The notes below the pieces were generated by a model. It searched no databases. It was given only the letters and a program-made list of their open reading frames with translations, and was not told where the DNA came from. Positions 13,004 to 29,376 of a stretch of 29,376 bases of DNA are shown here, piece after piece. The stretch comes from an uncultured virus (IMG/VR IMGVR_UViG_3300047157_000031) (taxonomy: Duplodnaviria; Heunggongvirae; Uroviricota; Caudoviricetes): the IMG/VR virus record IMGVR_UViG_3300047157_000031. One strand, written 5' to 3'. A program made the position numbers and the translations under genes. How positions within the stretch are numbered: position 1 is the first letter of the stretch; each line of letters starts with the position of its first letter.

Positions 13004-13172
13004 ACTTTCTCCTTTTAATTCTTTTGAGTTTTCCTCGCCAATTTAATTTCCAAACTTCTATTGTATCATCTTTAAAGTGTACTGTCAATAACCCATTGTT
13101 AGCATGCAAGGCAGTTACAGTATCTTTTTCCTGTTGCTTTGCATACATTTCATGTACGTCATACTCTGTCAT
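12993..13172 (-). CDS. Small hypothetical protein (59 aa, not in ORF track)
   Basis: Hand translation MTEYDVHEMYAKQQEKDTVTALHANNGLLTVHFKDDTIEVWKLNWRGKLKRIKRRKYET; coupled to the upstream stop. Confidence 0.7.
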   Translation of the reverse strand: MTEYDVHEMYAKQQEKDTVTALHANNGLLTVHFKDDTIEVWKLNWRGKLKRIKRRKYET

Positions 13173-14302: not shown

Positions 14303-14571
14303 TTTTGTAATTCCTCTATTATTTGTTTTAAATCATCTATATCATTTCTCAATGACTCAATATCGTTTTCTAAATCATCACGTACATTATTGCATTCATC
14401 ATTAATATGTTCCATAGCATACCTGTGATTATCATCTTCGATTTGTTTATTATCCATGATATCATTATGAATATCAAGTATTGTTTCTGAATACTCAATT
14501 ATTTCTTCGATATATCTTTTGTGATTATTTACTAAATTGTTTTCTATTGCTGATTTTTCTTCTGCACTCAT
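14299..14571 (-). CDS. Acidic coiled-coil hypothetical protein
   Basis: 90 aa ORF with ATGA coupling. Confidence 0.7.
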   Translation of the reverse strand: MSAEEKSAIENNLVNNHKRYIEEIIEYSETILDIHNDIMDNKQIEDDNHRYAMEHINDECNNVRDDLENDIESLRNDIDDLKQIIEELQK

Positions 14572-15302
14572 GCCACTAACCTCACTTCTATTTTCTCGTT
14601 ATCAATTACAAAACCTGAATAATCTTTCTTGGCTTTGCCTTTTGCTTTTAGTCCAACAACTACGTTGTCTTTATCTAAAAATCTCATGTCGTGTTCATCA
14701 CCATTAATAACCTCTAAACCTTTGAAGGTTTTAGGTATATCTTTTCTGAACACTACTGCTTTATTTTCTACTACTGTATTAAATAGTTTAGCATACTTTT
14801 TGTTTGCTTCTGAATAACTCCATGTCAAATAATAATTATCAATACCATTTATTTTTCTTGTAGGTATCTTAGTGTAATCATAAAACTGTATGTTAGGAAA
14901 CATATCAAACATATTCTTACCATTTACTTCTTGATACTCCCATTGAATATCTGATGTACCATTTAATCTAAGACTAGGTTGCTTACCTAACTTGTCGCAT
15001 TCTCTTTCAAACTTAGAAATGTCTGAGACTAACTGCCCCATAAAGTTATCATACTCGTTGAAATAAAGCAAGGTCTTTCGTATCCTAGCCTGTTGAATTG
15101 AAGTATAAACTCCTCCCAAGCCTGCAGTATTTAAGCATGGTTTATCACACATAGCAATCTTAGAATAAGGACAAGTAGTTTTCTCTCCGTCAGCTAAATC
15201 TGAGGGAGCAAGATACATAATTCTACTAAAGTATTTGTCTTGTATCTTGTTGCTCTTATCAATCTTAGGACTAGAGCTTGATAGTAATTTATATGTAGGC
15301 AT
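14568..15302 (-). CDS. GP88-like protein (Cys triad, putative Fe-S / radical-SAM-like)
   Basis: CPYSKIAMCDKPCL (Cx7Cx3C), RLNGTSD, QFYDYTK, GDEHDMRFLD, VVGLKAKG. Confidence 0.7.
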   Translation of the reverse strand: MPTYKLLSSSSPKIDKSNKIQDKYFSRIMYLAPSDLADGEKTTCPYSKIAMCDKPCLNTAGLGGVYTSIQQARIRKTLLYFNEYDNFMGQLVSDISKFERECDKLGKQPSLRLNGTSDIQWEYQEVNGKNMFDMFPNIQFYDYTKIPTRKINGIDNYYLTWSYSEANKKYAKLFNTVVENKAVVFRKDIPKTFKGLEVINGDEHDMRFLDKDNVVVGLKAKGKAKKDYSGFVIDNEKIEVRLVA

Positions 15303-15315
15303 AGTTTCTCCAGTT

Positions 15316-15456
15316 AAAAAAGTGTGTAGCTAGGGTAAGAAGTTCTCTGAGGTATATTCTTACATTTCTTAGGTGGAACACCTAACTACACGCTGAAGGT
15401 CTAGTAGTTTATAGTCACTTCTTGAGATAACCTTCTCGCACTCAATGGCTGACTTT
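15316..15456 (-). ncRNA. Candidate structured cis-regulatory leader with competing helices and a U-tract
   Basis: Helices found by hand: AGUCA/UGACU, UUGAG/CUCAA, GAAGGU/ACCUUC, AACUAC/GUAGUU, GUGUAGUUAGG/CCUAGCUACAC + U6. Confidence 0.5.
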
Positions 15457-15464
15457 GTATTTCT

Positions 15465-15731
15465 TTATTTAGTAATTGTAAAAATATATTTTCCCTCTAA
15501 TTCAGGGTGTTGATATAAAGAGTATCTACCTCTAGCATACGTACTTGTTCCTGCACCTACTTTATCTTTATCAGCTTCATCAAGTACAAACCAATCACCT
15601 GCCGACATACTACCTACTAAATCTCTCCAAAAAGATTTAGGTGTAGTTTTTCTAGGTGGTGCTTTTTTATTTGTTACAATTTCAAAAGTTGGCATTGTTC
15701 TTCTTTTAATAATTTTAGTTTTATATGGCAT
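15465..15731 (-). CDS. Small basic protein, possibly DNA-binding
   Basis: FEIVTNKKAPP...W...SMSAGDWF pattern; AAGGA RBS. Confidence 0.6.
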   Translation of the reverse strand: MPYKTKIIKRRTMPTFEIVTNKKAPPRKTTPKSFWRDLVGSMSAGDWFVLDEADKDKVGAGTSTYARGRYSLYQHPELEGKYIFTITK

Positions 15732-15761
15732 AATATTTCCTTAAATAATTGGTTAAAAATG

Positions 15762-15792
15762 TGATAGTTTTTGAAGAGAACTATCAAACTCT
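15762..15792 (-). ncRNA. H-type pseudoknot in 5' UTR
   Basis: AGAG-UU-UGAUAGUU-CUCU-UCAAA-AACUAUCA. Confidence 0.55.
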
Positions 15793-15797
15793 AAAGG

Positions 15798-15892
15798 GTG
15801 CTTACTTTAATTCTAAGTGTACATTAATTATTATTATTATAGCATCATGTAGCTATCGAGTATGTCCTTAATAAAAATTAAAGATGAAGCAC
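15798..15892 (-). other. Long imperfect intergenic hairpin (possible RNase III site)
   Basis: Nested pairs GUGCUU/AAGCAC, CUUUAAUU/AAUUAAAG, ACAU/AUGU, AUAGC/GCUAU. Confidence 0.5.
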
Positions 15893-16120: not shown

Positions 16121-16167
16121 ATTATACGCTCAACCCCAAAGCGAGGTCAAGCGTAAGTAACAAGTAA
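16121..16167 (-). promoter_or_regulatory. Early sigma70 promoter with conserved upstream element
   Basis: TTACTTGTTACTTACGC-TTGACC-N18-TATAAT. Confidence 0.8.
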
Positions 16168-16169
16168 GA

Positions 16170-16625
16170 CTATATAACGCTATGTAAAAATCTTTTTAAA
16201 AGAGAGCTTTCACCAACTCTGTCAAGCTTTAAAGATTTAAAAGCACTATCAACATTTCTTTCAAACTCTGTAGGACTAGACATATAAGTGTCAGGTACTC
16301 TTAAGATAGTCATAGTAGGATTCTTTTCACCTACTTTAATTTTCTCATTGAATCTAACTTCGTCTTGAATGTATCCTGTCCTAAGATGTTTAGGTAAGAC
16401 TTCATTAAGACTAACTTTACCATAGTTATGTACTCTAAAAGATGTTCCGTCTTTTGTTTCGTATCTTTCTTTGTACTTCCTAACTTTAATCATAGAGATT
16501 CCTTCTTCATTACCTCTATTCCATAAGTCTTGTAACTCTTTTGGAGCGGTACTTATAGGTCTAGTAGTTTCAGAACCTCGTCTACTGTATTCTAGCACAG
16601 TATTAGCTAATTTTTTATTGGTCAT
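16170..16625 (-). CDS. Hypothetical early protein
   Basis: 151 aa ORF flanked by promoter repeats. Confidence 0.75.
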   Translation of the reverse strand: MTNKKLANTVLEYSRRGSETTRPISTAPKELQDLWNRGNEEGISMIKVRKYKERYETKDGTSFRVHNYGKVSLNEVLPKHLRTGYIQDEVRFNEKIKVGEKNPTMTILRVPDTYMSSPTEFERNVDSAFKSLKLDRVGESSLLKRFLHSVI

Positions 16626-16695: not shown

Positions 16696-16741
16696 ATTTT
16701 ACACTTGACCATTTTCACAGTCAAGCGTAAGTAACAAGTAA
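16696..16741 (-). promoter_or_regulatory. Early sigma70 promoter with conserved upstream element
   Basis: TTACTTGTTACTTACGC-TTGACT-N17-TAAAAT; 16720-16741 is identical to 16146-16167 (22 bp). Confidence 0.8.
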
Positions 16742-16745
16742 TACT

Positions 16746-17099
16746 TTATCTCCAAATAAAATGTTTATGATTAAGATTAATATCTAAAGGATTGCTATCA
16801 AAACCATAACCATTCCACCAACCCTTAGGCTTAGTATTATTATTAAGTTTTAAAGTGTCGCTGATTGCTGACTCTTTCCATTCTTTAAAAGCTATAGTTT
16901 TATATTTATCTAAAGATATTCTTGCTCGGTGATTATTGGAACGCATAGTAACCCACTTGCGACCAATCTTAATAGTATAAAGTCTATAACCATATTTACC
17001 ACACATAAAAGTTTTAAAATGGTCAGACATTCTAGGATTTAATAATCGTTCTTGTCTCTCAGGACTAATAGGTTCTAATAAATTTTCAATGGGTTTCAT
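16746..17099 (-). CDS. Hypothetical early protein
   Basis: 117 aa; AAGGAG RBS; KIGRKWV motif. Confidence 0.75.
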   Translation of the reverse strand: MKPIENLLEPISPERQERLLNPRMSDHFKTFMCGKYGYRLYTIKIGRKWVTMRSNNHRARISLDKYKTIAFKEWKESAISDTLKLNNNTKPKGWWNGYGFDSNPLDINLNHKHFIWR

Positions 17100-17373: not shown

Positions 17374-17408
17374 ATTCTAGCGACTGAAGTTTTCGGTGTC
17401 AAGCGTAA
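17374..17408 (-). promoter_or_regulatory. Early sigma70 promoter
   Basis: TTACGC-TTGACA-N17-TAGAAT, then GCTCAACAA as at the 16696 promoter. Confidence 0.8.
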
Positions 17409-17484: not shown

Positions 17485-17764
17485 GCCTTGCAATCCTTAA
17501 TATTAAAGTAAAATAATGTTTATAATAGAGGTGTGTTAGTGTAGTAACACAGTAGGTTGGTGTATTAGAGCAGTAAAACACTAAAACAACAGAAGAAAAA
17601 AAATAATTCTTGACAGGTTGAATTTTTTCTGAGTGAGAAAATTTTGATATCTTGACAGGTAGAAATTTTTGTACGGGGTGTGGTTGTGTTTTTGTTGTTC
17701 GTGGTCTAAAGTTGGGGCAAGCGTTGGAAATGGTTTCAGCGTAATAACTTAAAAAGGAAATAAA

Positions 17765-18106
17765 ATGGTTAATAAAACTAAAAAAACTTTTAAAGACTGG
17801 GTTGCTTCAAGTAAAGAAAACTTAGAAGCGTTATTAAAACAATCGAAAGAAGAGCAAAACAAAAAAATCTCTTACGGAGAAGTTAAATCTCTCGCCACTC
17901 ATTTGAGCAGTAGCGATATAAAAAATAAACCTAAAGAAGCGGTTTATAAAAGGGTGAATGCTTTTCTTTTAAATGAAGTAAACAATGGAAAAGGATTTTC
18001 TAAATTGCAAGTGCTCAAGATTAAATCTTCGGAGACATTTCCTAAAGCTTTTGAAAAGAAATTTTTAGATAGTTTTAAAAGGTGGGAAAGTGAGAATTTG
18101 GGGTAG
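17765..18106 (+). CDS. Lys-rich hypothetical protein
   Basis: 113 aa; AAGGA RBS. Confidence 0.75.
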   Translation: MVNKTKKTFKDWVASSKENLEALLKQSKEEQNKKISYGEVKSLATHLSSSDIKNKPKEAVYKRVNAFLLNEVNNGKGFSKLQVLKIKSSETFPKAFEKKFLDSFKRWESENLG

Positions 18107-18110
18107 GCTT

Positions 18111-18365
18111 ATGGGAGCAGTTAAACAGTTAGCAAGTGAGTCTTATTACCTCGCTCAATATGATAGTCATCAACGTGCTTTTTTTTGGAAGAAATATAAT
18201 CAAATGAAAGCGGAGCGTTACTATAATGGAGAGCAAAACCCTTATGAATGTTTTCAAGATTATATTGACACGAACCGCTCATTTTTAATCTCTAAATATT
18301 GGGAAGATTATTTCAAAAATTTAAAAGAAGTTTTTAAAAATTTAAGGGAGGTTATGAACCACTAA
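18111..18365 (+). CDS. Hypothetical protein
   Basis: ATG at 18111, just after the previous stop with a G-rich RBS, preferred over the GTG at 18090. Confidence 0.7.
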   Translation: MGAVKQLASESYYLAQYDSHQRAFFWKKYNQMKAERYYNGEQNPYECFQDYIDTNRSFLISKYWEDYFKNLKEVFKNLREVMNH

Positions 18366-18416
18366 CAGAGAACAAAAAAAAGAGATTCAAGAACCCCAAC
18401 TTGAATTAAATTTTTT

Positions 18417-18469
18417 AAGGGAGGCAATGAGCCTCCTTTTTTTTATTTTAAAATTAATTTGTAACATTT
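18417..18469 (+). repeat. 53-bp direct repeat copy 1 (terminator + TGTAAC element)
   Basis: AAGGGAGGC-AATGA-GCCTCC-T8-ATTTTAAAATTAATTTGTAACATTT, identical to 18752-18804. Confidence 0.95.
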
Positions 18470-18485
18470 TTAATTTTGATACGTT
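18460..18485 (+). promoter_or_regulatory. ECF-sigma-like promoter
   Basis: TGTAAC-N16-CGTT, then 9 nt and the ATG at 18495. Confidence 0.6.
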
Positions 18486-18494
18486 ATAGAAAAT

Positions 18495-18734
18495 ATGAAT
18501 ACAAAAAATAACAGTCGAGAGACTTTAAACCCCGAGAACCCGAGTTTAACTTTTGATGAGCTTCAAGAACTTCAAAACTTATTCGGTGATATTAGAATGG
18601 CTAGAGATGATTTAGCTTCTAAAGGTTATGATATTGGAGGCTTTCAATTGAATAGCGTTACTGATGCCGAACGAATGCTTTTACCTTCAGAGGAAGACTG
18701 CATTGATTGGGAAGAGATAACACAAGATAATTAA
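18495..18734 (+). CDS. Acidic hypothetical protein (no SD, probably near-leaderless)
   Basis: 79 aa ORF between the repeat copies. Confidence 0.75.
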   Translation: MNTKNNSRETLNPENPSLTFDELQELQNLFGDIRMARDDLASKGYDIGGFQLNSVTDAERMLLPSEEDCIDWEEITQDN

Positions 18735-18751
18735 AGGGAGGAAAGAAAAGA

Positions 18752-18804
18752 AAGGGAGGCAATGAGCCTCCTTTTTTTTATTTTAAAATTAATTTGTAAC
18801 ATTT
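18752..18804 (+). repeat. 53-bp direct repeat copy 2 (terminator + TGTAAC element)
   Basis: Identical to 18417-18469. Confidence 0.95.
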
Positions 18805-18820
18805 CTAAAACCTGTTCGTT
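18795..18820 (+). promoter_or_regulatory. ECF-sigma-like promoter
   Basis: TGTAAC-N16-CGTT, then 9 nt and the ATG at 18830. Confidence 0.6.
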
Positions 18821-18829
18821 GTATAGGGT

Positions 18830-19042
18830 ATGAATGAAAAAATAGAAACTCTTAACGAGTATAAAATAAACGATAGCACTAACACACAGGTTAAAATCTA
18901 TCATGAACTAATAGAGAGCATTATCAAGGTAGCAGAGCATTCAAGTGCTGAGAATACTCAAGATGCGATTAATCTAGCGTGGGAACTCTTCAAAAGTGAC
19001 GATAGGCTTACTTTAGTCTTTGAAGATGATTACTTAAACTAG
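18830..19042 (+). CDS. Acidic hypothetical protein (probably near-leaderless)
   Basis: 70 aa ORF followed by a terminator. Confidence 0.75.
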   Translation: MNEKIETLNEYKINDSTNTQVKIYHELIESIIKVAEHSSAENTQDAINLAWELFKSDDRLTLVFEDDYLN

Positions 19043-19062
19043 GAGGACAACCAAAAGGAAAG

Positions 19063-19088
19063 AAGGGGCTTAATTGCCTCTTTTTTTT
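19063..19088 (+). terminator. Intrinsic terminator
   Basis: AAGGGGC-TTAATT-GCCTCTT followed by a T run; a variant of the repeat terminator. Confidence 0.8.
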
Positions 19089-19309
19089 GTGTTGGTAACT
19101 AGGAATGAATTTAAGACGTTCTAAGCTCTGAAAACTACCCTACCCCTTACGATACCCTTAGAAGACTTTAAAAGTCTCTCTAAGTGCCTGTATTTGCGTT
19201 AGAAGTGTGCTTAACTCTGTGAAGTGTAACCCCTATAACGTACATTGATTATTTCCCTATATTCTAAGTAAACTTCATAAACTACTAAAATCTCTGTAGG
19301 TTTTGGTCT

Positions 19310-19460
19310 GTTTCTCTGTAAAGCTTCTAAAGTTTTTAAAGTTTTATAGAGTCTTTAAAGTCTGTATGATTTTTAACCAGTTGATTTATTTATTTTAGAG
19401 ATTTTAAGAGTCTTAAAAGTACTGTATAAATTTATAGTATTTACAAAGTCTTTAAAGTGT
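19310..19460. repeat. Degenerate short-repeat tract (AAAGTYTTT-like units) in an ORF-free region
   Basis: aagcttcta aagttttta aagttttat agagtcttt aaagtctgt ... agagtctta aaagtactg ... aaagtcttt aaagtg. Confidence 0.55.
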
Positions 19461-19632
19461 GATAGGGAGGCAGGACACCCGTACCCACTACCCCCTATAT
19501 ATGCACAATCTCATACATTTCTAAGGATTTCAAGTGTTAAGTAGGGGTTTGGTCGGGGGTCTGTGGAACTTCTAAGTCTAAGAAGTCTTGTGAGGATATT
19601 GGGGATACTATGACCGGGCATAGCTAACTATT

Positions 19633-19661
19633 ATTATACAGTTAAAACCTGTTTCTGTCAA
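19633..19661 (-). promoter_or_regulatory. Perfect leftward sigma70 promoter facing non-coding DNA
   Basis: TTGACA-N17-TATAAT on the minus strand. Confidence 0.8.
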
Positions 19662-19689
19662 GCAATATTTAATTTATTTACATATAAAC

Positions 19690-19718
19690 TTGACAGAATC
19701 TAAATTCACCTCTATAAT
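19690..19718 (+). promoter_or_regulatory. Perfect rightward sigma70 promoter of the packaging/structural arm
   Basis: TTGACA-N17-TATAAT, 9 nt before the ATG at 19728. Confidence 0.85.
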
Positions 19719-19727
19719 AGATAACAT

Positions 19728-20144
19728 ATGAACTTGCCCAGTAATTCAAAAAGGAATCTTACAGATAAACAACAAGATTTCTTGAATAACTTAATCGAAA
19801 CAAAAGGAAATTTAAAGCTTTCAGCCGAACTTGCAGGCTATGCAGGAAATCACTACCAAGTAATAAATAGTCTTAGACAAGAAATAGTGGATTTAGCCTC
19901 AACAGTCCTCGCAAGGGAAGCACCTAAAGCAGCCTTTAAACTCGTAGAAGTTATGGAGAGCGATACAGCTATACCTCAAGCTAACACAAAGCTTCAGGCA
20001 GCTCAGACAATCCTTGATAGGGTTGGGGTGTCCAAGACAGAACGATTAGATATTAATCAGAATGTTAATGGAGGCATATTCATATTGCCTGAAAAGCAAT
20101 TAATAGATATTAAAGAAGAAGACTATGAAGATATTTCTGACTGA
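19728..20144 (+). CDS. terS: Putative terminase small subunit
   Basis: LTDKQQDFL...SAELAGY HTH, AAQTILDRVG, IFILPEK; first gene of the packaging arm. Confidence 0.7.
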   Translation: MNLPSNSKRNLTDKQQDFLNNLIETKGNLKLSAELAGYAGNHYQVINSLRQEIVDLASTVLAREAPKAAFKLVEVMESDTAIPQANTKLQAAQTILDRVGVSKTERLDINQNVNGGIFILPEKQLIDIKEEDYEDISD

Positions 20145-20337
20145 ATACCAATTAGATAATAAAATCTATGCAGGTGTAAACATTTTTGCTTTAGATGAAG
20201 TTGAAGCAGAGCTTATTGCAACAGAGAATGGTGTAACTATTGTAGGTGAAGTAACAGGAATAAAGTTTAAAGAAGAGTTTGATAATTACTTATCATTAGT
20301 AGAAGAAGTACATGTAGAAAAACGGATATTACATTAA
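20125..20337 (+). CDS. Hypothetical protein
   Basis: 70 aa ORF overlapping the TerS end. Confidence 0.7.
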   Translation: MKIFLTEYQLDNKIYAGVNIFALDEVEAELIATENGVTIVGEVTGIKFKEEFDNYLSLVEEVHVEKRILH

Positions 20338-20379
20338 TGGCAAAATCAAAACAACCTAAAGTAGAAAATAGAATAAGAA

Positions 20380-20562
20380 ATGGCAACGAAGAAAAAATCA
20401 ACAGTAAACAAAGCAGGGAACTACACAAAACCCACAATGAGAAAAAACCTCTTTAATAAAATTAAAGCAGGAACGAAAGGTGGTAAAGCAGGTCAATGGT
20501 CTGCACGTAAAGCTCAGATGCTTGCTAAAGAATACAAAGCTAAAGGTGGAGGCTATAAATAG
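20380..20562 (+). CDS. Very basic small protein (DUF5872-like)
   Basis: NYTKP...GGKAGQWSARKAQMLAKEYKAKGGGY. Confidence 0.75.
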   Translation: MATKKKSTVNKAGNYTKPTMRKNLFNKIKAGTKGGKAGQWSARKAQMLAKEYKAKGGGYK

Positions 20563-20564
20563 TT

Positions 20565-20807
20565 ATGGCACTTAAGAAGTCTCAGAAGTCTTTAAAGCGT
20601 TGGACAAAACAAAAGTGGAGAACTGCTAGTGGTAAAAAGTCCTCTGAAACAGGAGAGGTCTATGCACCTGCAAAGACTATTAAGAAACTTAAGTCGACTC
20701 CTAAAGGTCGTAGTAAGTTAGCAGCAGCCAATAAAAAGAAAAGAGAAGCAACTGCAAAAGGTAAACAACATGCCAAGCATGGACTACATAAAGGAAAGAA
20801 AAGATAA
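20565..20807 (+). CDS. Very basic small protein (DUF5872-like)
   Basis: QKSLKRWTKQKWRT.SGK.S..TGE.Y.P. Confidence 0.7.
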   Translation: MALKKSQKSLKRWTKQKWRTASGKKSSETGEVYAPAKTIKKLKSTPKGRSKLAAANKKKREATAKGKQHAKHGLHKGKKR

Positions 20808-21088
20808 TGGCTAAAGATACTAAACTAGTTAAAGCAGGAGTAAGTGGATATAATAAACCAAAACGTACTCCTAATCATCCAACTAAATCTCATGTGGTTG
20901 TTGCCAAGAAAGGTGATAAAACTAAAACAATTCGTTTTGGGCAGCAAGGAGTAAAAGGAGCAGGAAAGAATCCTAAGACTGCTAAAGATAAAGCACGTAA
21001 AAAAAGTTATTATGCTAGACACAACGCACAAGATTCAAGTCCTGATAAGTTTAGTGCTAGGTATTGGTCACATAAGGTTAAGTGGTAA
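20807..21088 (+). CDS. Very basic small protein (DUF5754-like)
   Basis: IRFGQQG...RKKSYYARH...SARYWS..W. Confidence 0.7.
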   Translation: MAKDTKLVKAGVSGYNKPKRTPNHPTKSHVVVAKKGDKTKTIRFGQQGVKGAGKNPKTAKDKARKKSYYARHNAQDSSPDKFSARYWSHKVKW

Positions 21089-21235
21089 ATGAGTAAACAG
21101 CTAGGAACAGACCGACAACCAGTAAAGTTTAAAGCCCTTGAAAAACAAAAAGGACGTTTATCTATGCGTGGTAAAGGTATTCGTGACCAAAAACAATTTG
21201 AAAAAAATTGGGATAAGATTTTTAATAAAAAGTAA
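21089..21235 (+). CDS. Small basic protein (48 aa, not in ORF track)
   Basis: Hand translation MSKQLGTDRQPVKFKALEKQKGRLSMRGKGIRDQKQFEKNWDKIFNKK; fills the gap exactly, TAATG coupling to iscU. Confidence 0.75.
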   Translation: MSKQLGTDRQPVKFKALEKQKGRLSMRGKGIRDQKQFEKNWDKIFNKK

Positions 21236-21660
21236 TGGCTTATTCTCAACAAGTCATTGATAGGTTCAATAGTGTTTTAGCTGAACCTGAAAAACATTCA
21301 GTAGGTCGATTCGACCCTCAAGACCCAAACGTAGCAACAGGAATGACAGGAGCACCTGCCTGTGGTGATGTTATGCGTTTACAGTTAAAACTCAATGGGG
21401 ACTTAATAGAAGACGTAAAGTTTAAAACCTATGGTTGTGGTTCTGCTATAGCATCCTCTACTATGTTTGTAGAAATGTTAAAGGGTAAAACAATTAAAGA
21501 AGCTAAGCAAATAAAAGATAAAGATATTGCAGAGGCTTTAAAGTTACCTCCAATTAAGCTACATTGTTCTGTTCTTGCAGAAGAAAGCATACACAAAGCT
21601 ATAGAAGACTGGGAAACTAAAGTCGCACATAGACAACAGGACCTCAAACAGATTTCTTAG
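21235..21660 (+). CDS. iscU: Fe-S cluster scaffold IscU (auxiliary metabolic gene); last ~7 codons uncertain
   Basis: GAPACGDVM, FKTYGCGSAIAS, LPPIKLHCSVLAE: three Cys plus the LPPVK-type chaperone motif. Confidence 0.95.
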   Translation: MAYSQQVIDRFNSVLAEPEKHSVGRFDPQDPNVATGMTGAPACGDVMRLQLKLNGDLIEDVKFKTYGCGSAIASSTMFVEMLKGKTIKEAKQIKDKDIAEALKLPPIKLHCSVLAEESIHKAIEDWETKVAHRQQDLKQIS

Positions 21661-22955
21661 CTGCTGGCAGAAAAAGATGTATTATACGGTGGAGCAGCAG
21701 GTGGTGGTAAAAGTTTTGCAATGTTAATAGACCCATTGCGTTACTTGTCACATAACAGAACACAGAGCTTTAATACTTAGAAGGTCTATGCCAGAACTAA
21801 GAGAACTTATAGATAAGTCTCGTGAACTTTATCCACAAGCATTTAAAGGTGCTAAGTTTAGAGAAGTAGAAAAGCTTTGGAACTTTCCAAGTGGAGCAAA
21901 ATAGAGTTTGGTTTCTTAGAAAGAGATGCAGATGTATATCGTTATCAAGGACAAGCGTACAGTTGGATAGGTTTTGATGAGATAACTCATTTACCTACAG
22001 AGTTTGGTTGGAACTACTTAGCATCTCGTTTAAGAACAACAGACCCAGAAATACAAACTTATTTACGATGTACAGCTAACCCCGGTGGTGTTGGTGCACA
22101 TTGGGTAAAGAAAAGATATGTAGAACCTTCAGAGCCTAATAAAACTTTTAAAGGTAAAGATGGACTTAACAAGAAAGTTTATTCCAGCAAGTTACAGGAT
22201 AATCCATATCTTGCTGAAGATGGTGAATACGAAAGGATGTTACAATCCTTACCAGCCTATACAACGTAAGACAACTACTAGAAGGTAACTGGGATGTAGC
22301 AGAAGGTGCAGCATTTGCAGAATTTACTCCTGAAGATGTACATGTTATACCTCCTTTTGAATTACCTGTACTTGGTGGGAAAGAGTTAAAGCAATTGACT
22401 ATGGTTATGCTGCAGAAAGTTGTTGTTTATGGGGTGCTATAGATATAGATGATAAGACATTATTATATATAGAGAATTATACAGAAAAGGTCTTGACAGG
22501 AGAAGCATTAGGTGACTATAATAACAGATATGGAAGAGAAGAAATAAAATCTCAGTTCCTGGTGTATTAGATACTGCAGCATGGGCTAGGACAGGTTATA
22601 CAGGTCCTACTATAGGTGAAACACTTAGTTAATAAAGGACATAAACTAAGAAGAGCTGATAAGAATAGAATAGCAAGGTAAAACTCAAATACACGAGTAT
22701 TTAAAAGCAAAGAGAAAACAGGAAGACCTAAGTTACAGATATTTAATACTGTGTCCAAACTTAATAAGAGAATTACAAGGTATTCCGTTATCTAAAACTA
22801 ATCCAGAAGATGTAGATACACATGCTTCAGACCACGCATATGATGCATTAAGATATATGATAATGAGTAGACCAAGAATGGACCATCCTCATTAGAAAGA
22901 ATGTTAAGGATTAAAAGAGATATGTATAACCTGCTGATTCACATTTGGATATTAA
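21639..22955 (+). CDS. terL: Terminase large subunit (start missing, multiple frameshifts as assembled)
   Basis: GPQTDFL, LYGGAAGGGKS (Walker A), IGFDE (Walker B), TANPGG, IDYGY, DHAYDALRY, C-terminal FGY-stop, spread over several frames. Confidence 0.9.
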
Positions 22956-22957
22956 TA

Positions 22958-25162
22958 ATGGCAGAAGAAAATACATTTTTAAATGCTGATAGCATCTACG
23001 AAGAAGTAGAAGGTGAAGTCTGGTAAAACATTACTCTTAGAAGAAGACCAACAAAGAAATCTTATTGGTATTATTAAAGATAGATATGCTCAAGCTGAAG
23101 ATGCTAGACAAACTGATGAAACTCGTTGGTTAAAAGCATATGAAAACTATAGAGGTTTTATGCTAAAGGTGTTAAGTTTAGAGATCTGAAAAGTCTAGAG
23201 TATTTGTAAAGATTACTAAGACTAAAGTACTAGCTGCTTTTGGACAGCTTAGTTGATGTTATATTTGGTACAGGTAAGTTTCCTATAGGTATTGCAGAAA
23301 CTAAAATACCAGAAGGTGAAACAGACTATGCTCATCTTGATACACTAATCCTACTCCTAATAGAAACATCAGAAGCTGAAAACCAGATGATATAGGTAAT
23401 AGAGAAGATGCATAATAAATCCTTATGATGTTGGTTATGAAGGAGATGGTAGAACTTTAAAACCCGGTGCAACTTTTTATAACGGAATATTTGAAGATAG
23501 TTTAGAAGACCAAGCTAGAAGATGCTGGTATGCTAACAGATGGAGCAAGTCCTGACCCACAAGCTATAGAATTAAATCCTGCACAAAGAGCTGCAAGAAG
23601 AATGGAAAAACTTATCCATGACCAAATAGAAGAATCTAATGGTTCTTCAGAAATAAGAAATGCTCTTTTAGAATCTGCTTTACTAGGTACAGGGATTGTA
23701 AAAGGACCATTTAATTTTAATAAAAAATTACATAAATGGGATACAGATGAAGAAGGAAAAGAAATTATAATCCATTAGAAGTTAGAGTACCAAGAATAGA
23801 GTTTGTTAGTTGTTGGGATTTTTATCCTGACCCTAACGCTACTAACATGGAAGAATGTGAATATGTATATTCATAGACACAAAATGAATCGTAGTCAACT
23901 TAAGACAACTACGAAATATGCCTTACTTTGACGAAGATGCAATACGTATTGTATTCAAATGGGTGCTAACTACGTAGAAAAAGATTTTGAAAGTCAATTA
24001 AAAGATGATGATAGAAGTGATGAAGAGTTATACAAGTAACTTTGAAGTTCTTAGAATACTGGGGTATTATGGATGCAGAGTATGCTAGAGAAGTAGGTAT
24101 TGAACTTACCGAAGAAATAGATGATTTAGATGAAGTACAAATTAATGCATGGGTATGTGGTATAAACTTATTAAGAGCAGTATTAATCCATTTACTCCTT
24201 ATAGAATACCATACAATGCTTTTCCATATGAAAGAAATCCATATAATTTTTTGGTATTGGTGTAGCAGAAAATATGGATGATGCTCAACAATTATGAATG
24301 GTCATGCAAGAATGGCTATTGATAACTTAGCAATAGCTGGTAATTTAGTATTTGATGTTGATGAGTCTGCTTTAGTTGGTGGACAATCAATGGAAGTATA
24401 TCCGGGTAAAATATTTAGAAGACAAGCTGGAATGCCGGGACAAGCTATACATGGATTAAAGTTTCCTAATACTGCACAAGAAAATATTAATGATGTTTGA
24501 TAAGTTTAGACAACTTGCAGATGAACAAACAGGAATACCTAGTTACTCACATGGACAAACAGGTGTTCAAAGTATGACAAGAACTGCTTCTGGTATGTCA
24601 ATGTTACTTAGGAGCATCAAGTTTAAATATTAAAACAGTTATAAAAATCTTGATGACTTTTTATTAAACCTTTAGGAGAAGCTTACTTCCAATGGAACAT
24701 GCAATTCTATGAAGGTGACTTGGATGTTAAAGGTGATTTAGAAGTTAAAGCTACAGGAACAAATAGCTTGATGCAAAAAGAAGTTAGAAGTCAAAGACTT
24801 ACTATGTTCTTACAAACTGCACAAATCCTGCTATTGCTCCATTTGTTAAAGATTTCTAAACTCGTTAAGTGAACTTGCCTATAGCTTAGATTTAGACCCT
24901 GATGAAATACTCAATGACCCTGAAGAAGCAGCTATCATGGCACAAATAATAGGAATGCAAAATGCTGGACAAACAAATGGCGAAGAAGCTCAACCCAATG
25001 GTCAACAGCCCACAATGGGAGGACGTTCAAGGAGTACCTCAACAACCTCAAGAACTTGGACCTACAGGCACTGGTGGTGGCAACATCGGAACAGGAAATG
25101 TACCGGCTGCAGGGGAAAGTGAGTTCTCTGGTACGCCTAGAGCAGTTGCCGGAGCAGGTTAA
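22958..25162 (+). CDS. Portal protein (multiple frameshifts as assembled)
   Basis: Follows TerL; fragments RWLKAYENYRG, KTKVLAAFGQL, GTGIVKGPF, LEYWG, NGHARMAIDN, RTASGMSML, QKEVRSQRL. Confidence 0.8.
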
Positions 25163-25193
25163 AGAAGCAATTAACAGAAAAAAGGAGATATAA
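24962..25193 (+). CDS. Small helical protein overprinted on the portal C-terminus (one extra base near 25023)
   Basis: Removing A25023 gives MLDKQMAKKLNPMVNSPQWEAFKEYLNNLKNLDLQALVVATSEQEMYRLQGKVSSLVRLEQLPEQVKEAINRKKEI, with the stop abutting the next ATG. Confidence 0.7.
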
Positions 25194-25395
25194 ATGTTAG
25201 ATTATTAGATACAATTTTAAAAATAGTAGGAGTAGTACCTTGGATAATTTCAATCTGTTCAATGATTGCTGCATTAACACCTACACCACACGATGATAAT
25301 TTAGTAAGTAAAGCTTATAAAGTTATTGATTGGTTTGCTATTAACATAGGTAAAGCAAAAGCTTCTATTGATAATAAAAAAGGATAAAAAAATGA
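25194..25395 (+). CDS. Small membrane protein, holin-like (frameshift near start)
   Basis: AAGGAG RBS; LDTILKIVGVVPWIISICSMIAALTPTPHDD...YKVIDWFAINIGKAK. Confidence 0.55.
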
Positions 25396-25972
25396 AAAAG
25401 AAAGGAATGTACTTAAACCAAGATAGATACTCAAATGAAAGAAGGTGGTCCGGGTATAGAAGCTCTTAGAAAAGAAGCACCTGAAGTTGTTGAACGTATG
25501 GGTTATGAAGAAGGTGGTCCTATGAAGATGGATGACCAAATGATTAATGGTTATGACATCCTCTGAAGAACCTATGGAATCTGATGATGATATGGAAGAT
25601 AACTATACAAGATTTATAATGGAAGAAGCATTAAGTGAAGAAGAAGAAGATATGCTTGTTTCAAAACTAGAACAAGATAAACTACAAATGTTATTTGATA
25701 AAGTAATAGATGTAGCACAAGAATTTGCTGGGTCTGGTCCTGTTGAAGGACCGGGTTCAGGAGTCTCTGACAGTATACCTGCAAGGTTATCTGATGGAGA
25801 ATTTGTCTTTACTGCAAAAGCTGTAGAAGAAATCGGAGAAGACAATTTAATGTCTATGATGAAAGAAGCTGAAGCTGCTGCAGATGAAAGACAACCAGCT
25901 GAAATGGGAGGTGTAATGGATGCAAAGATAATCAAGGTAATGTCCAAGGAATGCAAAAGGTTCTATTGTTGA
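25392..25972 (+). CDS. Acidic virion-module protein with GPG.G.SDSIPARLSDGEFV motif (boundaries uncertain)
   Basis: ORF-track fragment 25547-25972 plus upstream frameshifted pieces. Confidence 0.6.
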
Positions 25973-26035
25973 TGAATTGAGAAAAGAATCGCTATACTAA
26001 TCCATAAACAATACCTATTCAGTAAAGCAAATAAC

Positions 26036-26150
26036 GATAAAGCTACCCTATTAGCGTAGGCACTTTATCATTAATAACCGAAAGGCTACCTTTACAAACA
26101 AGCCCTCTAGTCGACATAGAGCTACCTTGTAAACAAGCCCTGAGTAGGAG
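26036..26150 (+). ncRNA. Structured leader of the scaffold gene with repeated GCUACC / ACAAGCCC motifs
   Basis: Stems GAUAAAG/CUUUAUC, CCUA/UAGG, CC-GAAA-GG, UUUACAA/UUGUAAA, CUCUA/UAGAG; GCUACC x3; AAACAAGCCCU x2. Confidence 0.6.
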
Positions 26151-26157
26151 AAAGAAA

Positions 26158-27041
26158 ATGACTAATACAAGTCCAAAAAGAAGAACAAGCGAATCCTTAT
26201 AACGCAAAAAAAACCTTGGCACAATGTAGAAGATAAACCTTTTATCATCAGATAATTATATTTTGAAGAGCCTTCTGAAAAGAATAAACTCTTCAGAAGT
26301 AGATGACATAACTGAAGTTAAGCTAAGGAAGTGTTAATACTGAAGAACAGGAAACTAAAAAGGATACTCCTTATAAGAAACCAGACTATAAAAAAAGATA
26401 TGATGATTTAAAAAAACATTATGATAGTAAACTTAACGAGTTTAAATCTAGAGAACAAGAGTTAATTAGAAGAAGCTACTAAAATAGAACTGAATATAAA
26501 GCTCCTAAATCTCCAGAAGAACTTAGAACAGTTTAAAAATGAATATCCTGATGTTTACGAAGTTGTAGAAACTGTTGCTCATTTACAAAGCGAATCTAAA
26601 GCAAAAGTTCTAGAAGAACGCCTTAGTAAACTCCAAGAACGTGAAAACAATTAGTACGACAAGATGCAGAAAAAAGGTTAAGGAAAGACATCCTGATTTT
26701 GAAGATATCAGAAACAGTGATGACTTTCATGGTTGGGCAAAAGAACAACCTGCATCTATCCAAGCTTGGATATATGAAATACTGACGATGCTGATTTAGC
26801 TTCACGTGCTTTAGATTTGTTTAAAAAAGATTTTGGTATGGACCTTCCAAAGACTAAGTCAATCTTCTAAACCGACCAGAACAATCTGCTGCTGATATGG
26901 TTTCAACTAAAACAACAAAGTTGAACCTACGACAGGAAAAGTATGGTCAGAAAAGGAGATTGCTGCATGAGTATGGCAGAATTTGATAAATACGAAAAGG
27001 AAATATCAGATGCTATGCAAGAAGGCAGAATCACAAAATAA
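26158..27041 (+). CDS. Putative capsid scaffolding protein (frameshifted as assembled)
   Basis: AGGAG RBS; ANPYN, DYKKRYDDLKKHYD, YPDVYEVVETVA, HPDFEDI, C-terminal AMQEGRI; directly upstream of the capsid gene. Confidence 0.7.
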
Positions 27042-27071
27042 ACTATAACTTAACTTAAAGGAGAAAGTATC

Positions 27072-28050
27072 ATGGCTCAATTTTTTGAACCCTCAACAGA
27101 TACCGATGCTAACTTTGCAAACTCCGTAAGTGGACAAACTAATAGTTTCTTTTTACCTTCGGTTTACTCTAAAAAGGTTTTAAACTTCTTTAGAAAAGCC
27201 TCGGTAATTGAAGCTATTACTAACACCGACTATGCCGGTGAGATATCCTCTTTCGGAGACTCTGTAAAGATTATCAAAGAACCAGTTATTTCTGTGTCAG
27301 ATTACACAAGAAATAGCGACACAACTGAAACTAGACTAACAGACCAAGAAATTACTTTGGTTGTTGATAGTGCTAAAGCTTTCAAATTCATCGTAGATGA
27401 TATTGAAACTAACATGTCACATGTCAACTTCAAAGAAGTTGCTTCTTCTCTGCTGCGTATGCATTGAAAGATTCATATGATGCTGCTGTCTTAGCAACTA
27501 TGTTTGCTGGTTGTTCAGCTTCATCACCTAATCACATTTTAGGTTCTGATAGTGCAACTGATTTAGCAGCAGGAGTCTTTGATGGCTCTGGTGCTGCTAG
27601 ATATTAGGTTTTGACGGTCTGGTGAAACTGACCCATTAGACCTTATGGCTAGAATGGCAAGACTATTAGACGAACAAAATGTACCTGAAGAAGGTAGATG
27701 GTTCGTTGCAAGTCCTGACTTCTATGAAGTTCTAGGTCAATCTCTTCTAAATTATTATCTGTAGACTTCAACGCAGGTCAAGGTTCTATTAGAAATGGTT
27801 TAGTTTCAAGTGGAAAATTACGTGGATTTGATATGTACAAATCTAACAACATTGCTGCAACATCTAATGCTGCTGGTAAATGTTTATGGCTGGTCACATG
27901 TCATCTACTGCAACTGCTAACACAATTCTTTCAACAGAAGTGTTGAGAGACCCAACATCGTTTGGTGACATTGTTAGAGGCTTACATGTCTATGGTGCGA
28001 AAGTACTTAGAGATGAAGCTTTAGTAAGTGCATTCTACGGAATTGACTAA
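27072..28050 (+). CDS. Major capsid protein (frameshifted as assembled)
   Basis: AAGGAG RBS; FLPSVYSKKVL, ITNTDYAGEISSFGDSVKIIKEP, LDEQNVPEEGRW, FGDIVRGLHVYGAKVLR; followed by a terminator. Confidence 0.88.
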
Positions 28051-28059
28051 TCATAAATT

Positions 28060-28090
28060 GGGGGAGTCTTCGGACTCCTCCTCTTTTTTT
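28060..28090 (+). terminator. Intrinsic terminator after the capsid gene
   Basis: GGGGAGTC-TTCG-GACTCCTC plus a T run (cUUCGg tetraloop). Confidence 0.85.
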
Positions 28091-28229
28091 ATAAGGAAAA
28101 AAATGTATAAAGAAAAAAGAATAGCATGGCTAGAAAAGAAAATGGATGGTAGCCATGGCTAAAGAAAAAAGAAAGGTCATGGTGGATGGTAAATTACATG
28201 AAACACACAGGTAAGTTTGTAGCTAAACA

Positions 28230-28824
28230 TAAAGGTGACCCTTTTTATGGTAATGTAACTGTTGCAACAGGTGCAGGACAAAGATGGTATACATTAAAGT
28301 CTGATAGTTCTAGTATAACTACAGACTATGCATCAATAGATTGGGATGATTTTTATGTTAACAACAATAAATGTAAGTGGAGAAACAACTCCTTATGTTT
28401 CTAAAGGTTTAAAGTTTTTAACATTAGAAGATTGGAAAAGATACTACAGAGATTCTGAAAATGCAGATGATGCAGATAGGTTCAGATGCAAGTCATGGAG
28501 AACCTAAATATGTTATTTAAAGTCTCCAGACCATAGAAAGTTTGGATTAAGTCCAATACCTGATAAAGTTTATAATGTACATTTTTATGCTTTTGTAAAA
28601 CCAACAAGCGTTATCAGCATATGACGACACTATTACTTTACCAGACCAGTACAGTAATGTAATAACAGCTAGAAGCTAGATATTATGTACATGGCAGTTT
28701 AAAGAAAGCCCACAACAAGCTGCTTTTGCATTGGACGATTATAAAAAAGGTATGAAGACTATGAAATCTAATTTAATTAATCCAGAACCTAAAGTATATG
28801 ACAGACGATAGGACTTATTTCTAA
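28230..28824 (+). CDS. Putative head-tail adaptor / tail tubular protein A-like (N-terminus missing, frameshifted)
   Basis: Fragments GQRWYTLK, GEPKYV, FGLSPIPDKVYNVHF, LPDQYSNVI; position after the capsid gene. Confidence 0.55.
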
Positions 28825-28826
28825 AT

Positions 28827-29376
28827 ATGGCAGCAGGACAACCTTTTACAGTAGCATGTTAAGTGGTGGATTAGTAACATCTCAGCTAACTCAATATCTT
28901 TACTTACGTACACCCGGAGTTGCTACTAAGTTTTAAGAAACTTTGAAGTATCTATTGAAGGTGGATACAGAAGTATAAATGGATATGAGCAAACAAGCCT
29001 TACATCTTTAGAATGGAAGGTACTAATGCTTTAGCTAGTAGAACTTTCTTTGCAGAAGAAATTACTGTAACAGGAACTAAGCATGCTAAATATGTTACGA
29101 CACATGATAAACATTTAATTGTTGCAGGTGTTGAAGATAATTTAAGTACAATATTTTATAGTTCGTTATTAGACCCTACAAGCTTTAGTGGAAGTGGTGC
29201 AGGTTCTATAGTCGTTGAAGACCAAATAGAAGGAGTTAGAGGTTTCCGTAATGAGTTATTTATATTCTGTACAAATAGCATATTTAAACTTATAAATATA
29301 AATTCAATAGTAACATTGCAATCGTACCAGTTACAAAGAACGTAGGTTGTTTAAGTGGATATAGCATTCAAGAAAT
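28827..29376 (+). CDS. Putative tail nozzle / tubular protein B-like (internally deleted, frameshifted, runs off window)
   Basis: MAAGQPFTVAC..GGL, NFEVSIEGGYR, then beta-propeller-like HLIVAG...IFYS...FRNELFIFC, VGCL. Confidence 0.55.

Follow-up and report, generated by a model that had tools for sequence, protein, structure and literature searches.

Two putative pseudoknot RNA modules, optional among phages, in the spacer ahead of a GP88-family gene of an uncultured virus

The spacer and module A

The stretch of DNA analyzed here (hereafter the window) comprises 29,376 nucleotides (nt) of an uncultured virus (IMG/VR record IMGVR_UViG_3300047157_000031) and is phage DNA. On its minus strand, a 162-nt spacer (15303-15464) separates an 88-aa open reading frame (ORF; 15465-15731), for which no family match was found in Pfam or PHROG, from a 244-aa ORF of the GP88 family (14568-15302; Pfam PF17338, E-value 1.4e-40; phrog_1617). 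The GP88-family gene has its ATG at 15302-15300 and a Shine-Dalgarno (SD) sequence, GGAG, at 15311-15308 (15300-15311 together, read from sequence). The spacer lies ahead of same-strand replication genes; downstream on this strand are genes for a Gp2.5-like single-stranded DNA-binding protein, a primase-helicase, a DNA polymerase A, a Cas4-like exonuclease, an endonuclease, and a ribonucleotide reductase. Within the spacer we distinguish 2 RNA modules, each present once in the window: module A (15393-15455), a putative H-type pseudoknot of 63 nt that follows the stop codon of the 88-aa ORF by 9 nt, and module B (15324-15391), a rod of 68 nt with a predicted internal pseudoknot. Positions refer to the minus strand of the window unless otherwise indicated.

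The first-pass annotation had described the spacer as a structured leader of the GP88-family gene, in which an aptamer-like pseudoknot would be coupled to a terminator and an antiterminator. All 5 helices that it listed (AGUCA/UGACU, UUGAG/CUCAA, GAAGGU/ACCUUC, AACUAC/GUAGUU, and UUAGGUG/CACCUAA) can be read on the minus strand, as can the long stem GUGUAGUUAGG/CCUAGCUACAC (15391-15381/15334-15324), which is followed by AC, U6 (15321-15316), AA, and GGAG. On folding energy alone the spacer is unremarkable: its minimum free energy (MFE) is -34.4 kcal/mol (z = -1.17), 27 of 200 shuffled sequences fold equally well, and the opposite strand gives z = -0.70. A non-significant folding z-score is compatible with real structure, and the comparison of homologues indicates that 3 of these pairings, UUGAG/CUCAA (P2), the loop-tail pseudoknot, and the long stem, exceed chance.

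A search with the GP88 protein gave 51 IMG/VR loci, whose upstream regions were compared; the whole comparison set comprised about 290 viral and metagenome loci. Many GP88 loci carry the long stem (GUGUAGCUAGG...CCUAGCUACAC, then ACUUUUU and the ribosome-binding site (RBS)) around very different interiors of 17-136 nt, and the first 60 nt of the annotated element are identical in loci whose GP88 proteins are only about 68% identical. Scanning with a pattern for the 3' arm of the stem returned 67 IMG/VR stretches, several of them chance matches within genes. The module A pattern was found in 17 IMG/VR stretches at first and in 48 with a later scan; 106 metagenome stretches, from a scan with the pseudoknot loop left free, bring the total to 154. 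From these we obtained 44 distinct 63-nt variants, 43 of which were aligned. The search patterns for A fixed columns 3-6, 8, 15-20, 27-29, and 38-42 and always left tail columns 44-63 free. The sole match to A in the genome_contigs collection (L184) was rejected as a chance match, as it lies in a coding-looking stretch and lacks other parts of the motif. No match to module A was found by blastn among GenBank phages, and the surrounding 1.5-kb region gave only a 146-nt coding match there, to a pelagiphage.

A covariance model built from the 43 homologues scores the window copy of A at 92.3 bits and the next match in the window at 20 bits. The outer helix P1 is formed by (A)GUCA (15450-15454) and UGAC(U) (15413-15417). 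Its outermost pair (columns 2-43), free in the patterns, is AU in 32, UA in 4, and CG in 1 of the 43 sequences and unpaired in 6, which amounts to modest covariation. P2, formed by UUGAG (15441-15445) and CUCAA (15422-15426), covaries at columns 12-33 (UA 21, AU 11, CG 11) and 14-31 (AU 24, GC 19). The 6 loop-tail pairs read initially (15435-15430/15400-15395) belong to a 7-bp pseudoknot between GAAGGUU in the P2 loop (15429-15435) and GACCUUC (15395-15401), whose columns were free in every pattern. This pseudoknot is 100% paired in 43/43 homologues and has compensatory changes at 4 of its 7 pairs (21-61, 22-60, 23-59, and 24-58), the variants being GGAAGU/ACUUCC, GAGAGU/ACUCUC, GAGGGU/ACCCUC, and AAAGGU/ACCUUU together with 2 G-U intermediates. 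The structure score of A was equalled by 0 of 500 shuffles, and in slid controls 32-54% of cells were paired. At the level of comparative sequence analysis, these changes show that module A folds as P1 and P2 with a 7-bp pseudoknot connecting the P2 loop to the 3' tail. The aptamer-like domain sketched in the first-pass annotation is accordingly conserved and covarying, as expected of a riboswitch aptamer.

The tail of A (columns 44-63) is nearly invariant despite being unconstrained in the searches. It contains a single-stranded linker of 9 nt, AAACUACUA (15402-15410); all patterns left its columns 46-54 free, and each of these is either invariant or conserved at 90% or more. About 18 invariant unpaired bases stand in A beside the covarying helices, and a U27-G55 wobble is present in 43/43 sequences. 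The G-U pairs of A, and those that also occur in the closing stem of B, would turn into A-C mismatches if read from the complementary strand, which places the function of both modules on the sense strand. We also considered the sequence TGACTATAAA within A as a promoter and rejected it, since the 2 bases after GUGAC vary freely (TA, GA, AA, TT, AT, TC, CT, or GT) and the preceding hairpin covaries.

The annotation had recognized no named family, and scans against Rfam 15 agreed: the window had 0 matches at the gathering threshold, and 20 related loci matched tRNA only. In E-value mode, the spacer and the A-B regions of other loci gave chance-level matches only (Corona_pk3, 12.6 bits, on the opposite strand; none in L028). 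A presumed resemblance of the A/B junction to a type III antitoxin RNA repeat had no match in Rfam and is given no weight. We found no paper text with the core sequences of the modules, and an unnamed listing of them among the 8,495 unnamed IMG/VR candidate RNAs of the survey PMC10690425 is possible, this source having been accessible in part.

Invariant unpaired bases beside covarying helices might also point to catalysis, with A and the hairpin that follows it, as a variable peripheral stem, forming a new small self-cleaving ribozyme. The sporadic, accessory, and phage-borne distribution of A would fit this, a dinucleotide AC is conserved behind the variable hairpin, and the outline of hairpin loop, 6-7 bp pseudoknot, and variable hairpin recalls the pistol ribozyme, which has 3 stems and a pseudoknot (PMC4604425). 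The pistol fold likewise has a hairpin loop that pairs over about 6 bp with a strand farther downstream, giving a pseudoknot, and then a variable hairpin; phages and metagenomes are among its sources. However, the pistol model does not match at E-values up to 10 and no other Rfam ribozyme family scores even at 10, A has the extra outer helix P1, and no helix joins its linker to the strand after the variable hairpin. Moreover, A also occurs without a comparable following hairpin (L127 and L225). We give a self-cleaving A very little credence.

Module B and the proposed control of the GP88 gene

Module B is closed by the long stem, whose 5' arm GUGUAGUUAGG (15381-15391) and 3' arm CCUAGCUACAC (15324-15334) form 11 pairs. 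Covariation was analyzed in 13 distinct homologues of the window's type, collected with a regular expression that constrained the arms to base classes without requiring them to pair and placed no constraint on the 2 inner helices. The closing stem is 100% paired with 3 compensatory pairs. Helix a pairs GUUC(C) (15375-15379) with (A)GAAC (15342-15346), and helix b, which is also part of the MFE fold, pairs GUAAGAA (15357-15363) with UUCUUAC (15335-15341), with 3 of its 7 pairs compensatory. In helix a, columns 16-48 are CG in 8 and GC in 5 homologues and columns 17-47 are CG in 6, GC in 6, and unpaired in 1, the window; GUUC/GAAC of the window is replaced by GUUCG/CGAAC, GUUGC/GCAAC, or GUUCC/GGAAC. 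In helix b, GUAAGAA/UUCUUAC of the window is replaced by GUUAGAA/UUCUAAC, GUAAGGA/UCUUUAC, or GUAAAGA/UCUUUAC. Overall, 98.7% of cells are paired, 8 of 23 pairs are compensatory, and 0 of 500 shuffles equalled the score. Helices a and b cross, and therefore B holds a pseudoknot; its last 23 nt, the entire 3' half, are paired without interruption. The covariation in all 3 helices of B, as in P2 and the pseudoknot of A, shows B to be a second predicted pseudoknot module, closed by the 11-bp stem. An exact 24-mer from its interior had 0 matches in IMG/VR.

Behind the closing stem, the tail AC-U6-AA (15314-15323) leads to the SD, and a long stem with a U-tract right ahead of the RBS, as had been proposed, appears to be a conserved feature. 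The 11-bp stem, the 2-nt AC spacer, and U6 of the window form the stem and U-tract of a terminator, but not its short loop of 3-8 nt: the stem encloses 46 nt, and a consensus terminator scan did not call B. Module B alone folds at -19.1 kcal/mol. Among 77 stems that follow A in different loci, some of which are chance picks (a stem is also obtained in 31% of shuffled sequences), 34 have TTTT no more than 7 nt away and 10 carry the tail ACCTATTT; in 43 the U-tract is absent or degenerate. Two other identities of B were tried and rejected. ARAGORN finds no tRNA in the window and the spacer has no Rfam tRNA match at E-values up to 10, although the same tools detect genuine tRNAs in neighbouring loci; and the flanks of B show no consistent target-site duplication of the kind left by a miniature inverted-repeat transposable element.

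A larger B-type RNA of 90-136 nt was also observed, with the same closing stem and a swappable central hairpin between conserved blocks, GAGYYUUURUAAAAUCC ... GGUYARRGNUGAA ... AAUAAG (minus strand; L024:2373-2476, L028:2342-2476, L033:2278-2388, L057:485-609, L065:478-609, L115:607-740, and about 14 more). One of its helices covaries by eye (AGCUUU/AAAGUU, CCUU/AAGG, ACUCU/AGAGU, AGUCUU/AAGGCU, and AGCCU/AGGCU), and these larger RNAs have no match in Rfam.

The mechanism proposed in the first-pass annotation was that A, as an aptamer or protein-binding domain, steers termination at B and U6 through mutually exclusive hairpins. The order of pseudoknot, stem, U-tract, and RBS is the classical one, the local hairpins AACUAC/GUAGUU (15409-15404/15389-15384) and UUAGGUG/CACCUAA (15385-15379/15375-15369) exist in the window, a predicted promoter has its +1 at the first base of A in some loci (L119), and in L227 and L228 a plain 12-bp hairpin with U5 follows A. 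However, neither alternative hairpin is conserved. UUAGGUG/CACCUAA has 72.5% of cells paired in the 13 homologues, a value equalled by 217 of 500 shuffles, and 5 of the 13 are unpaired at 3 of its 7 pairs; the GUAGUU arm that AACUAC/GUAGUU needs is present in 5 of the 77 stems after A, most of which read GUAGCU or GUGGCU. The 2 hairpins share bases and thus cannot coexist, and the window states with a local hairpin only, at -16.6 and -14.2 kcal/mol, are 12-14 kcal/mol weaker than the conserved nested fold at -28.7 kcal/mol. The stems after A are diverse (GUGUAGCU, GUGUGGCU, GUGAUGAG, and GUGGUGAU, besides the plain hairpin in L227/L228), and because they differ widely while the tail of A never changes, a common antiterminator pairing is not possible; no conserved mutually exclusive expression-platform pairing was found in the 13 B homologues or the 77 stems.

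The remaining observations also speak against this mechanism. The U-tract is missing or degenerate in more than half of the stems after A, B would work without A in close relatives, and tRNAs located behind B require read-through. Functionally coherent downstream genes, which would be expected for a riboswitch, were not found among the GP88-like genes, primase-helicase-like genes, unrelated ORFs, and tRNAs that follow the modules. Whereas the pseudoknot, P2, and the long stem of the annotated structure covary, its 2 local alternative hairpins are not conserved, and the terminator/antiterminator switch predicted from them is not supported; we consider it hardly probable. H-type pseudoknots are known among riboswitch aptamers, such as SAM-II/SAM-V, preQ1-II, and fluoride. 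A resembles them in its size of about 60 nt, its loop-to-3'-tail pairing, its invariant core with covarying stems, and its position before a stem, U-tract, and RBS. It differs in having no Rfam match, unrelated downstream genes, and no conserved alternative pairing, in leaving the SD outside the pseudoknot, and in being optional.

A different form of control would act on translation. The pyrimidine tail of A (CUACUAG...ACCUUCA) could be an anti-SD sequence that pairs either with its own loop GAAGGU, leaving the RBS free, or with the SD behind B, masking the RBS, and a folded B would bring the tail of A and the SD close together. In the window, CUUCAG/CUGGAG has -7.6 kcal/mol, equal to the pseudoknot duplex, and the MFE fold pairs CU-CUAG with CUGGAG. 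Across 72 distinct pairs, the tails of A have a mean of -5.8 kcal/mol with their own SD regions against -4.76 ± 0.23 kcal/mol for shuffled tails, with 0 of 200 as low, and loci without A often have a hairpin with an xCCUUy loop just ahead of B. Yet covariation was observed between the 2 pseudoknot strands but for no SD, purine-rich SDs can be matched by any pyrimidine word, which makes an excess of 1 kcal/mol weak, and locus L009 retains the same B and RBS without A. In addition, A also stands ahead of tRNAs and of RNA modules that have no RBS. A translational switch therefore appears quite unlikely to us.

Distribution of the modules among phages

The spacer element had been taken for a leader of the GP88-family gene. 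Among the 43 GP88 homologues for which 300 nt or more of upstream sequence was available, and with B defined by a strict 9-bp criterion, A lies within 450 nt of 6, B is present ahead of 19, and B adjoins the start codon in 9. Close relatives lack both modules: in L004 and L005, whose GP88 proteins are 92% identical, the upstream stop codon leads straight to the RBS. Across related phages the same site is empty (L004/L005), holds B only (L006 and L009), A and B (the window, L028, and L032), or A, B, and a tRNA (L033). In other loci, the genes behind A-B units are primase-helicase-like (as read from their zinc-finger N-termini), several unrelated ORFs, or tRNAs. On this comparison the modules are not tied to the GP88 gene, contrary to their description as its leader.

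At the genome level, A is single-copy in 5 viral records, 2 of them complete at 66-68 kb, and is absent from 5 closer relatives of the window phage (4 complete) by both pattern and covariance model, the best score of 19.6 bits being background. The canonical B tail has 0-1 copies in each of these 5 relatives and 1 in the window. A was not found in G001, a 7-kb fragment. In G002 and G003, the 2 complete records with A, the module is near-identical to that of the window, although their DNA polymerase is only 26-27% identical to that of the window phage. These 2 genomes share with the window a 558-aa ORF (196-1872, plus strand), with segments 68-71% and 42% identical; it has no PHROG match and may be a host-recognition part common to the 3 phages. 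The DNA polymerase of the window is 50% identical to those of Pelagibacter phages HTVC115P, HTVC103P, and HTVC104P, and the host phages of the modules appear to be pelagiphage-like rather than T4-like. Taken together, the site and genome comparisons show both modules to be optional and at most single-copy in the records checked, in a pattern that indicates exchange between phages.

Contigs from RNA libraries were available in assembled form only; contig ends, strand, and levels cannot be read from them, and uncovered parts carry no meaning. One metatranscriptome contig holds module A with the flanks of another phage, and one RNA-library contig carries the empty-site form, with neither A nor B. 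A 525-nt contig covers 15001-15525; its library is RNA by guess and possibly DNA.

A has a stem within 6 nt behind it in 77 of 96 contexts, compared with 602 of 1920 in shuffled sequences. A terminator-like hairpin immediately 3' of A would suit an RNA that acts in cis for antitermination, binding RNA polymerase and letting it pass B-type hairpin terminators and those of a simpler type C (described below), like the put sites of HK022 or the lambda nut sites. These are also single cis RNAs, located in an early operon 5' of terminators and constrained by a host machine. Consistent with this, A occurs once per genome, in the early region, the window copy precedes an operon that extends to the replication genes, and near-invariance across unrelated phages of a presumably common host fits recognition by host machinery. 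However, close relatives with the same hairpins dispense with A, A may lie between 2 B modules or after the first B, and promoter-like sites occur downstream at 13088 and 12134. The fold of A is also another one, with no structural likeness to the two-stem-loop put RNAs. We judge antitermination by A very unlikely.

Modules also occur in arrays, such as B-B-B-B-tRNA (L012, L014, L017, and L043) and B-A-B (L143, L146, and L147), with linkers of 2-10 nt. Since tRNAs and further modules sit directly behind B without room for a promoter, B is presumably largely read through. Arrays of 3 or 4 B-type hairpins are located at L012:2012-2382, L014:106-356, L017:185-434, and L043:1913-2142; the interiors of their units differ, and in part also the closing stems (GUGUGGCUAG.../GCAUGGCUAG...), the units are joined by 9-nt ACUUUUUAA linkers, and each array ends at a tRNA gene. 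A tRNA-Tyr/Trp gene lies directly behind A-B, within about 480 nt, in 9 of 114 distinct A loci.

This arrangement raises the alternative that the modules belong to a phage "RNA island" as small RNA genes: like the nearby tRNAs, they would be excised from the early transcript at AU-rich linkers and would then act in trans on a host factor, for instance as decoy or anti-defence RNAs. They behave as accessory, portable, single-copy elements that occur irrespective of the gene next to them, A is near-identical in otherwise unrelated phages that have the 68-71% identical ORF segment in common with the window, and array linkers are short, with the tRNA genes just mentioned following A-B. In addition, the ends of B pair as in stable RNAs, and the A-C-U-rich trailers behind B resemble those after phage tRNAs. 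Against this, no discrete small RNA was seen among the assembled contigs, to which the search was confined, most copies lack a separate promoter, and the RBS lies within 10-25 nt, so that the modules must at least also be mRNA leader. Neither ARAGORN nor the Rfam tRNA model recognizes B as tRNA-like. We regard trans-acting small RNA genes as unlikely.

A third, simpler element, module C, recurs in the early regions. In the window it lies at 15753-15787 as a hairpin UUGAUAG/CUAUCA with a pyrimidine...AAAAA loop, followed by C-A-U5-AA, and a putative extended -10-like sequence, TGCTATAAT (15836-15844), is read upstream of it. Its consensus UUG-N-UAG/CUA-N'-CA with a U-tract has 31 distinct forms across loci, and the central pair, not demanded by the search expression, is complementary in 31/31 (AT 11, GC 10, CG 7, TA 3). 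Unlike A and B, module C is the multi-copy element, with several copies per locus, often behind a TGnTATAAT-like promoter; 7 copies directly precede a B. B and C share a grammar: a stem ending in CAC, 1-3 nt, a U-run, AA, and the RBS.

A consensus scan found minus-strand sigma-70-like promoter matches oriented toward the spacer at 17402, 16724, and 16150, besides the sites at 13088 and 12134 downstream of it. The match at 16121-16150, TTGACC-18-TATAAT (11/12 consensus positions), is a predicted sigma-70-type early promoter directed at the cassette, as judged by its consensus match only. In L119, L064, L076, and L081, a conserved promoter TTGCTT-17-TAGAAT was observed behind a terminator and a long perfect hairpin, with its predicted +1 at the first base of A or of the B hairpin. 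Either module should therefore be able to begin a transcript.

Interpretation, related systems, and surrounding features

We tentatively favour the view that the spacer is a movable cassette of 2 self-contained, constitutively folding RNA modules rather than one switch, with B as punctuation and A as an autonomous pseudoknot. We infer the function of both modules from sequence comparison. A and B would be transcribed as part of the early operon, starting at sigma-70-type promoters. B could be an elaborated form of the simple hairpin and U-tract elements (module C) that punctuate early regions, serving as a leaky terminator and/or a processing-and-stability hairpin directly ahead of the RBS. 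Its conserved arms might double as recombination anchors, which would account for the mosaic interiors. The near-invariant unpaired bases of A may be read by a host or phage factor, or be catalytic, and A would not toggle B.

Several points weigh against this view. The conserved internal pseudoknot of B would be superfluous for a simple stabilizer or terminator hairpin. The invariance of P1 (GUCA/UGAC) and of part of the loop of A is uninformative, as these were fixed by the search patterns. The greater complementarity of A tails than of shuffled tails to downstream SD regions favours a cis role in translation, and A and the following stem could cooperate, given the 77 of 96 contexts in which they adjoin.

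The recombination proposed for the arms of B parallels promoter-early stem-loop (PeSL) cassettes, which are composite promoter/terminator elements that mediate gene shuffling in T4-type phages (PMC4122927). In both cases small conserved intergenic motifs of promoter/terminator type lie amid hyperplastic small early genes (PMC4122927, PMC2839356) and mark exchange points of unrelated sequence: here the B arms flank mosaic interiors, whole-cassette insertions and deletions exist, and the site comparison places a conserved intergenic motif at the borders of insertion, deletion, and replacement. In contrast, PeSLs are plain stem-loops present in many copies per genome, whereas B is single-copy at most and a covarying pseudoknot, A is a separate pseudoknot, and neither is a multi-copy unit of promoter and terminator. 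Accessory structured RNAs clustered and co-transcribed with phage tRNAs, namely T4 "species 1 and 2", GOLLD, and ROOL (see 10.1101/2024.12.08.627333), offer another parallel. Compared with these, A and B (63-136 nt) are much smaller and show no sequence relationship, and a tRNA is nearby in only the 9 of 114 A loci.

Going further, A might represent an undescribed class of mobile phage RNA, either catalytic or a decoy or effector acting on RNA polymerase, the ribosome, an RNase, or a defence system, and forming with B-type RNAs and tRNAs an accessory "RNA island" of pelagiphage-like genomes; this is possible, although we lean against it. More than once, small RNAs that combine an invariant core with covarying helices and lack a protein partner have proved to be riboswitches, ribozymes, or factor-binding regulators. 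With a pseudoknot backed by compensatory changes, 154 public stretches, and no Rfam or literature match, A is a ready candidate for bench work. A behaves like an accessory gene, being optional, single-copy, and present in phages otherwise little alike, which suggests an exchange of RNA modules among marine phages similar to their exchange of anti-defence proteins. The case also advises caution in annotation: one sequence alone should not label such leaders gene-specific switches.

Further features of the window were noted outside the spacer. A 30-nt repeat, 93% identical, at 16146-16175 and 16720-16749 overlaps the -35 region of 2 of the minus-strand early promoter matches and looks like a common upstream promoter element. 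On the plus strand, a 91-nt direct repeat, 84% identical, at 18417-18507 and 18752-18842 contains a strong terminator-like hairpin (AAGGGAGGCAATGAGCCTCCTTTTTTTT) and an AT-rich promoter-like stretch, and precedes 2 small plus-strand ORFs. From 17600 to 29376, nearly 12 kb, all ORFs are at most 141 aa, with partial PHROG matches to terminase, major head protein, tape measure, and amidase. Stop-codon recoding was tried for the right half of the window and rejected, since neither TAG=Q nor table 4 meaningfully lengthens or joins ORFs. This region could be a long series of small genes or a degraded or mosaic region.

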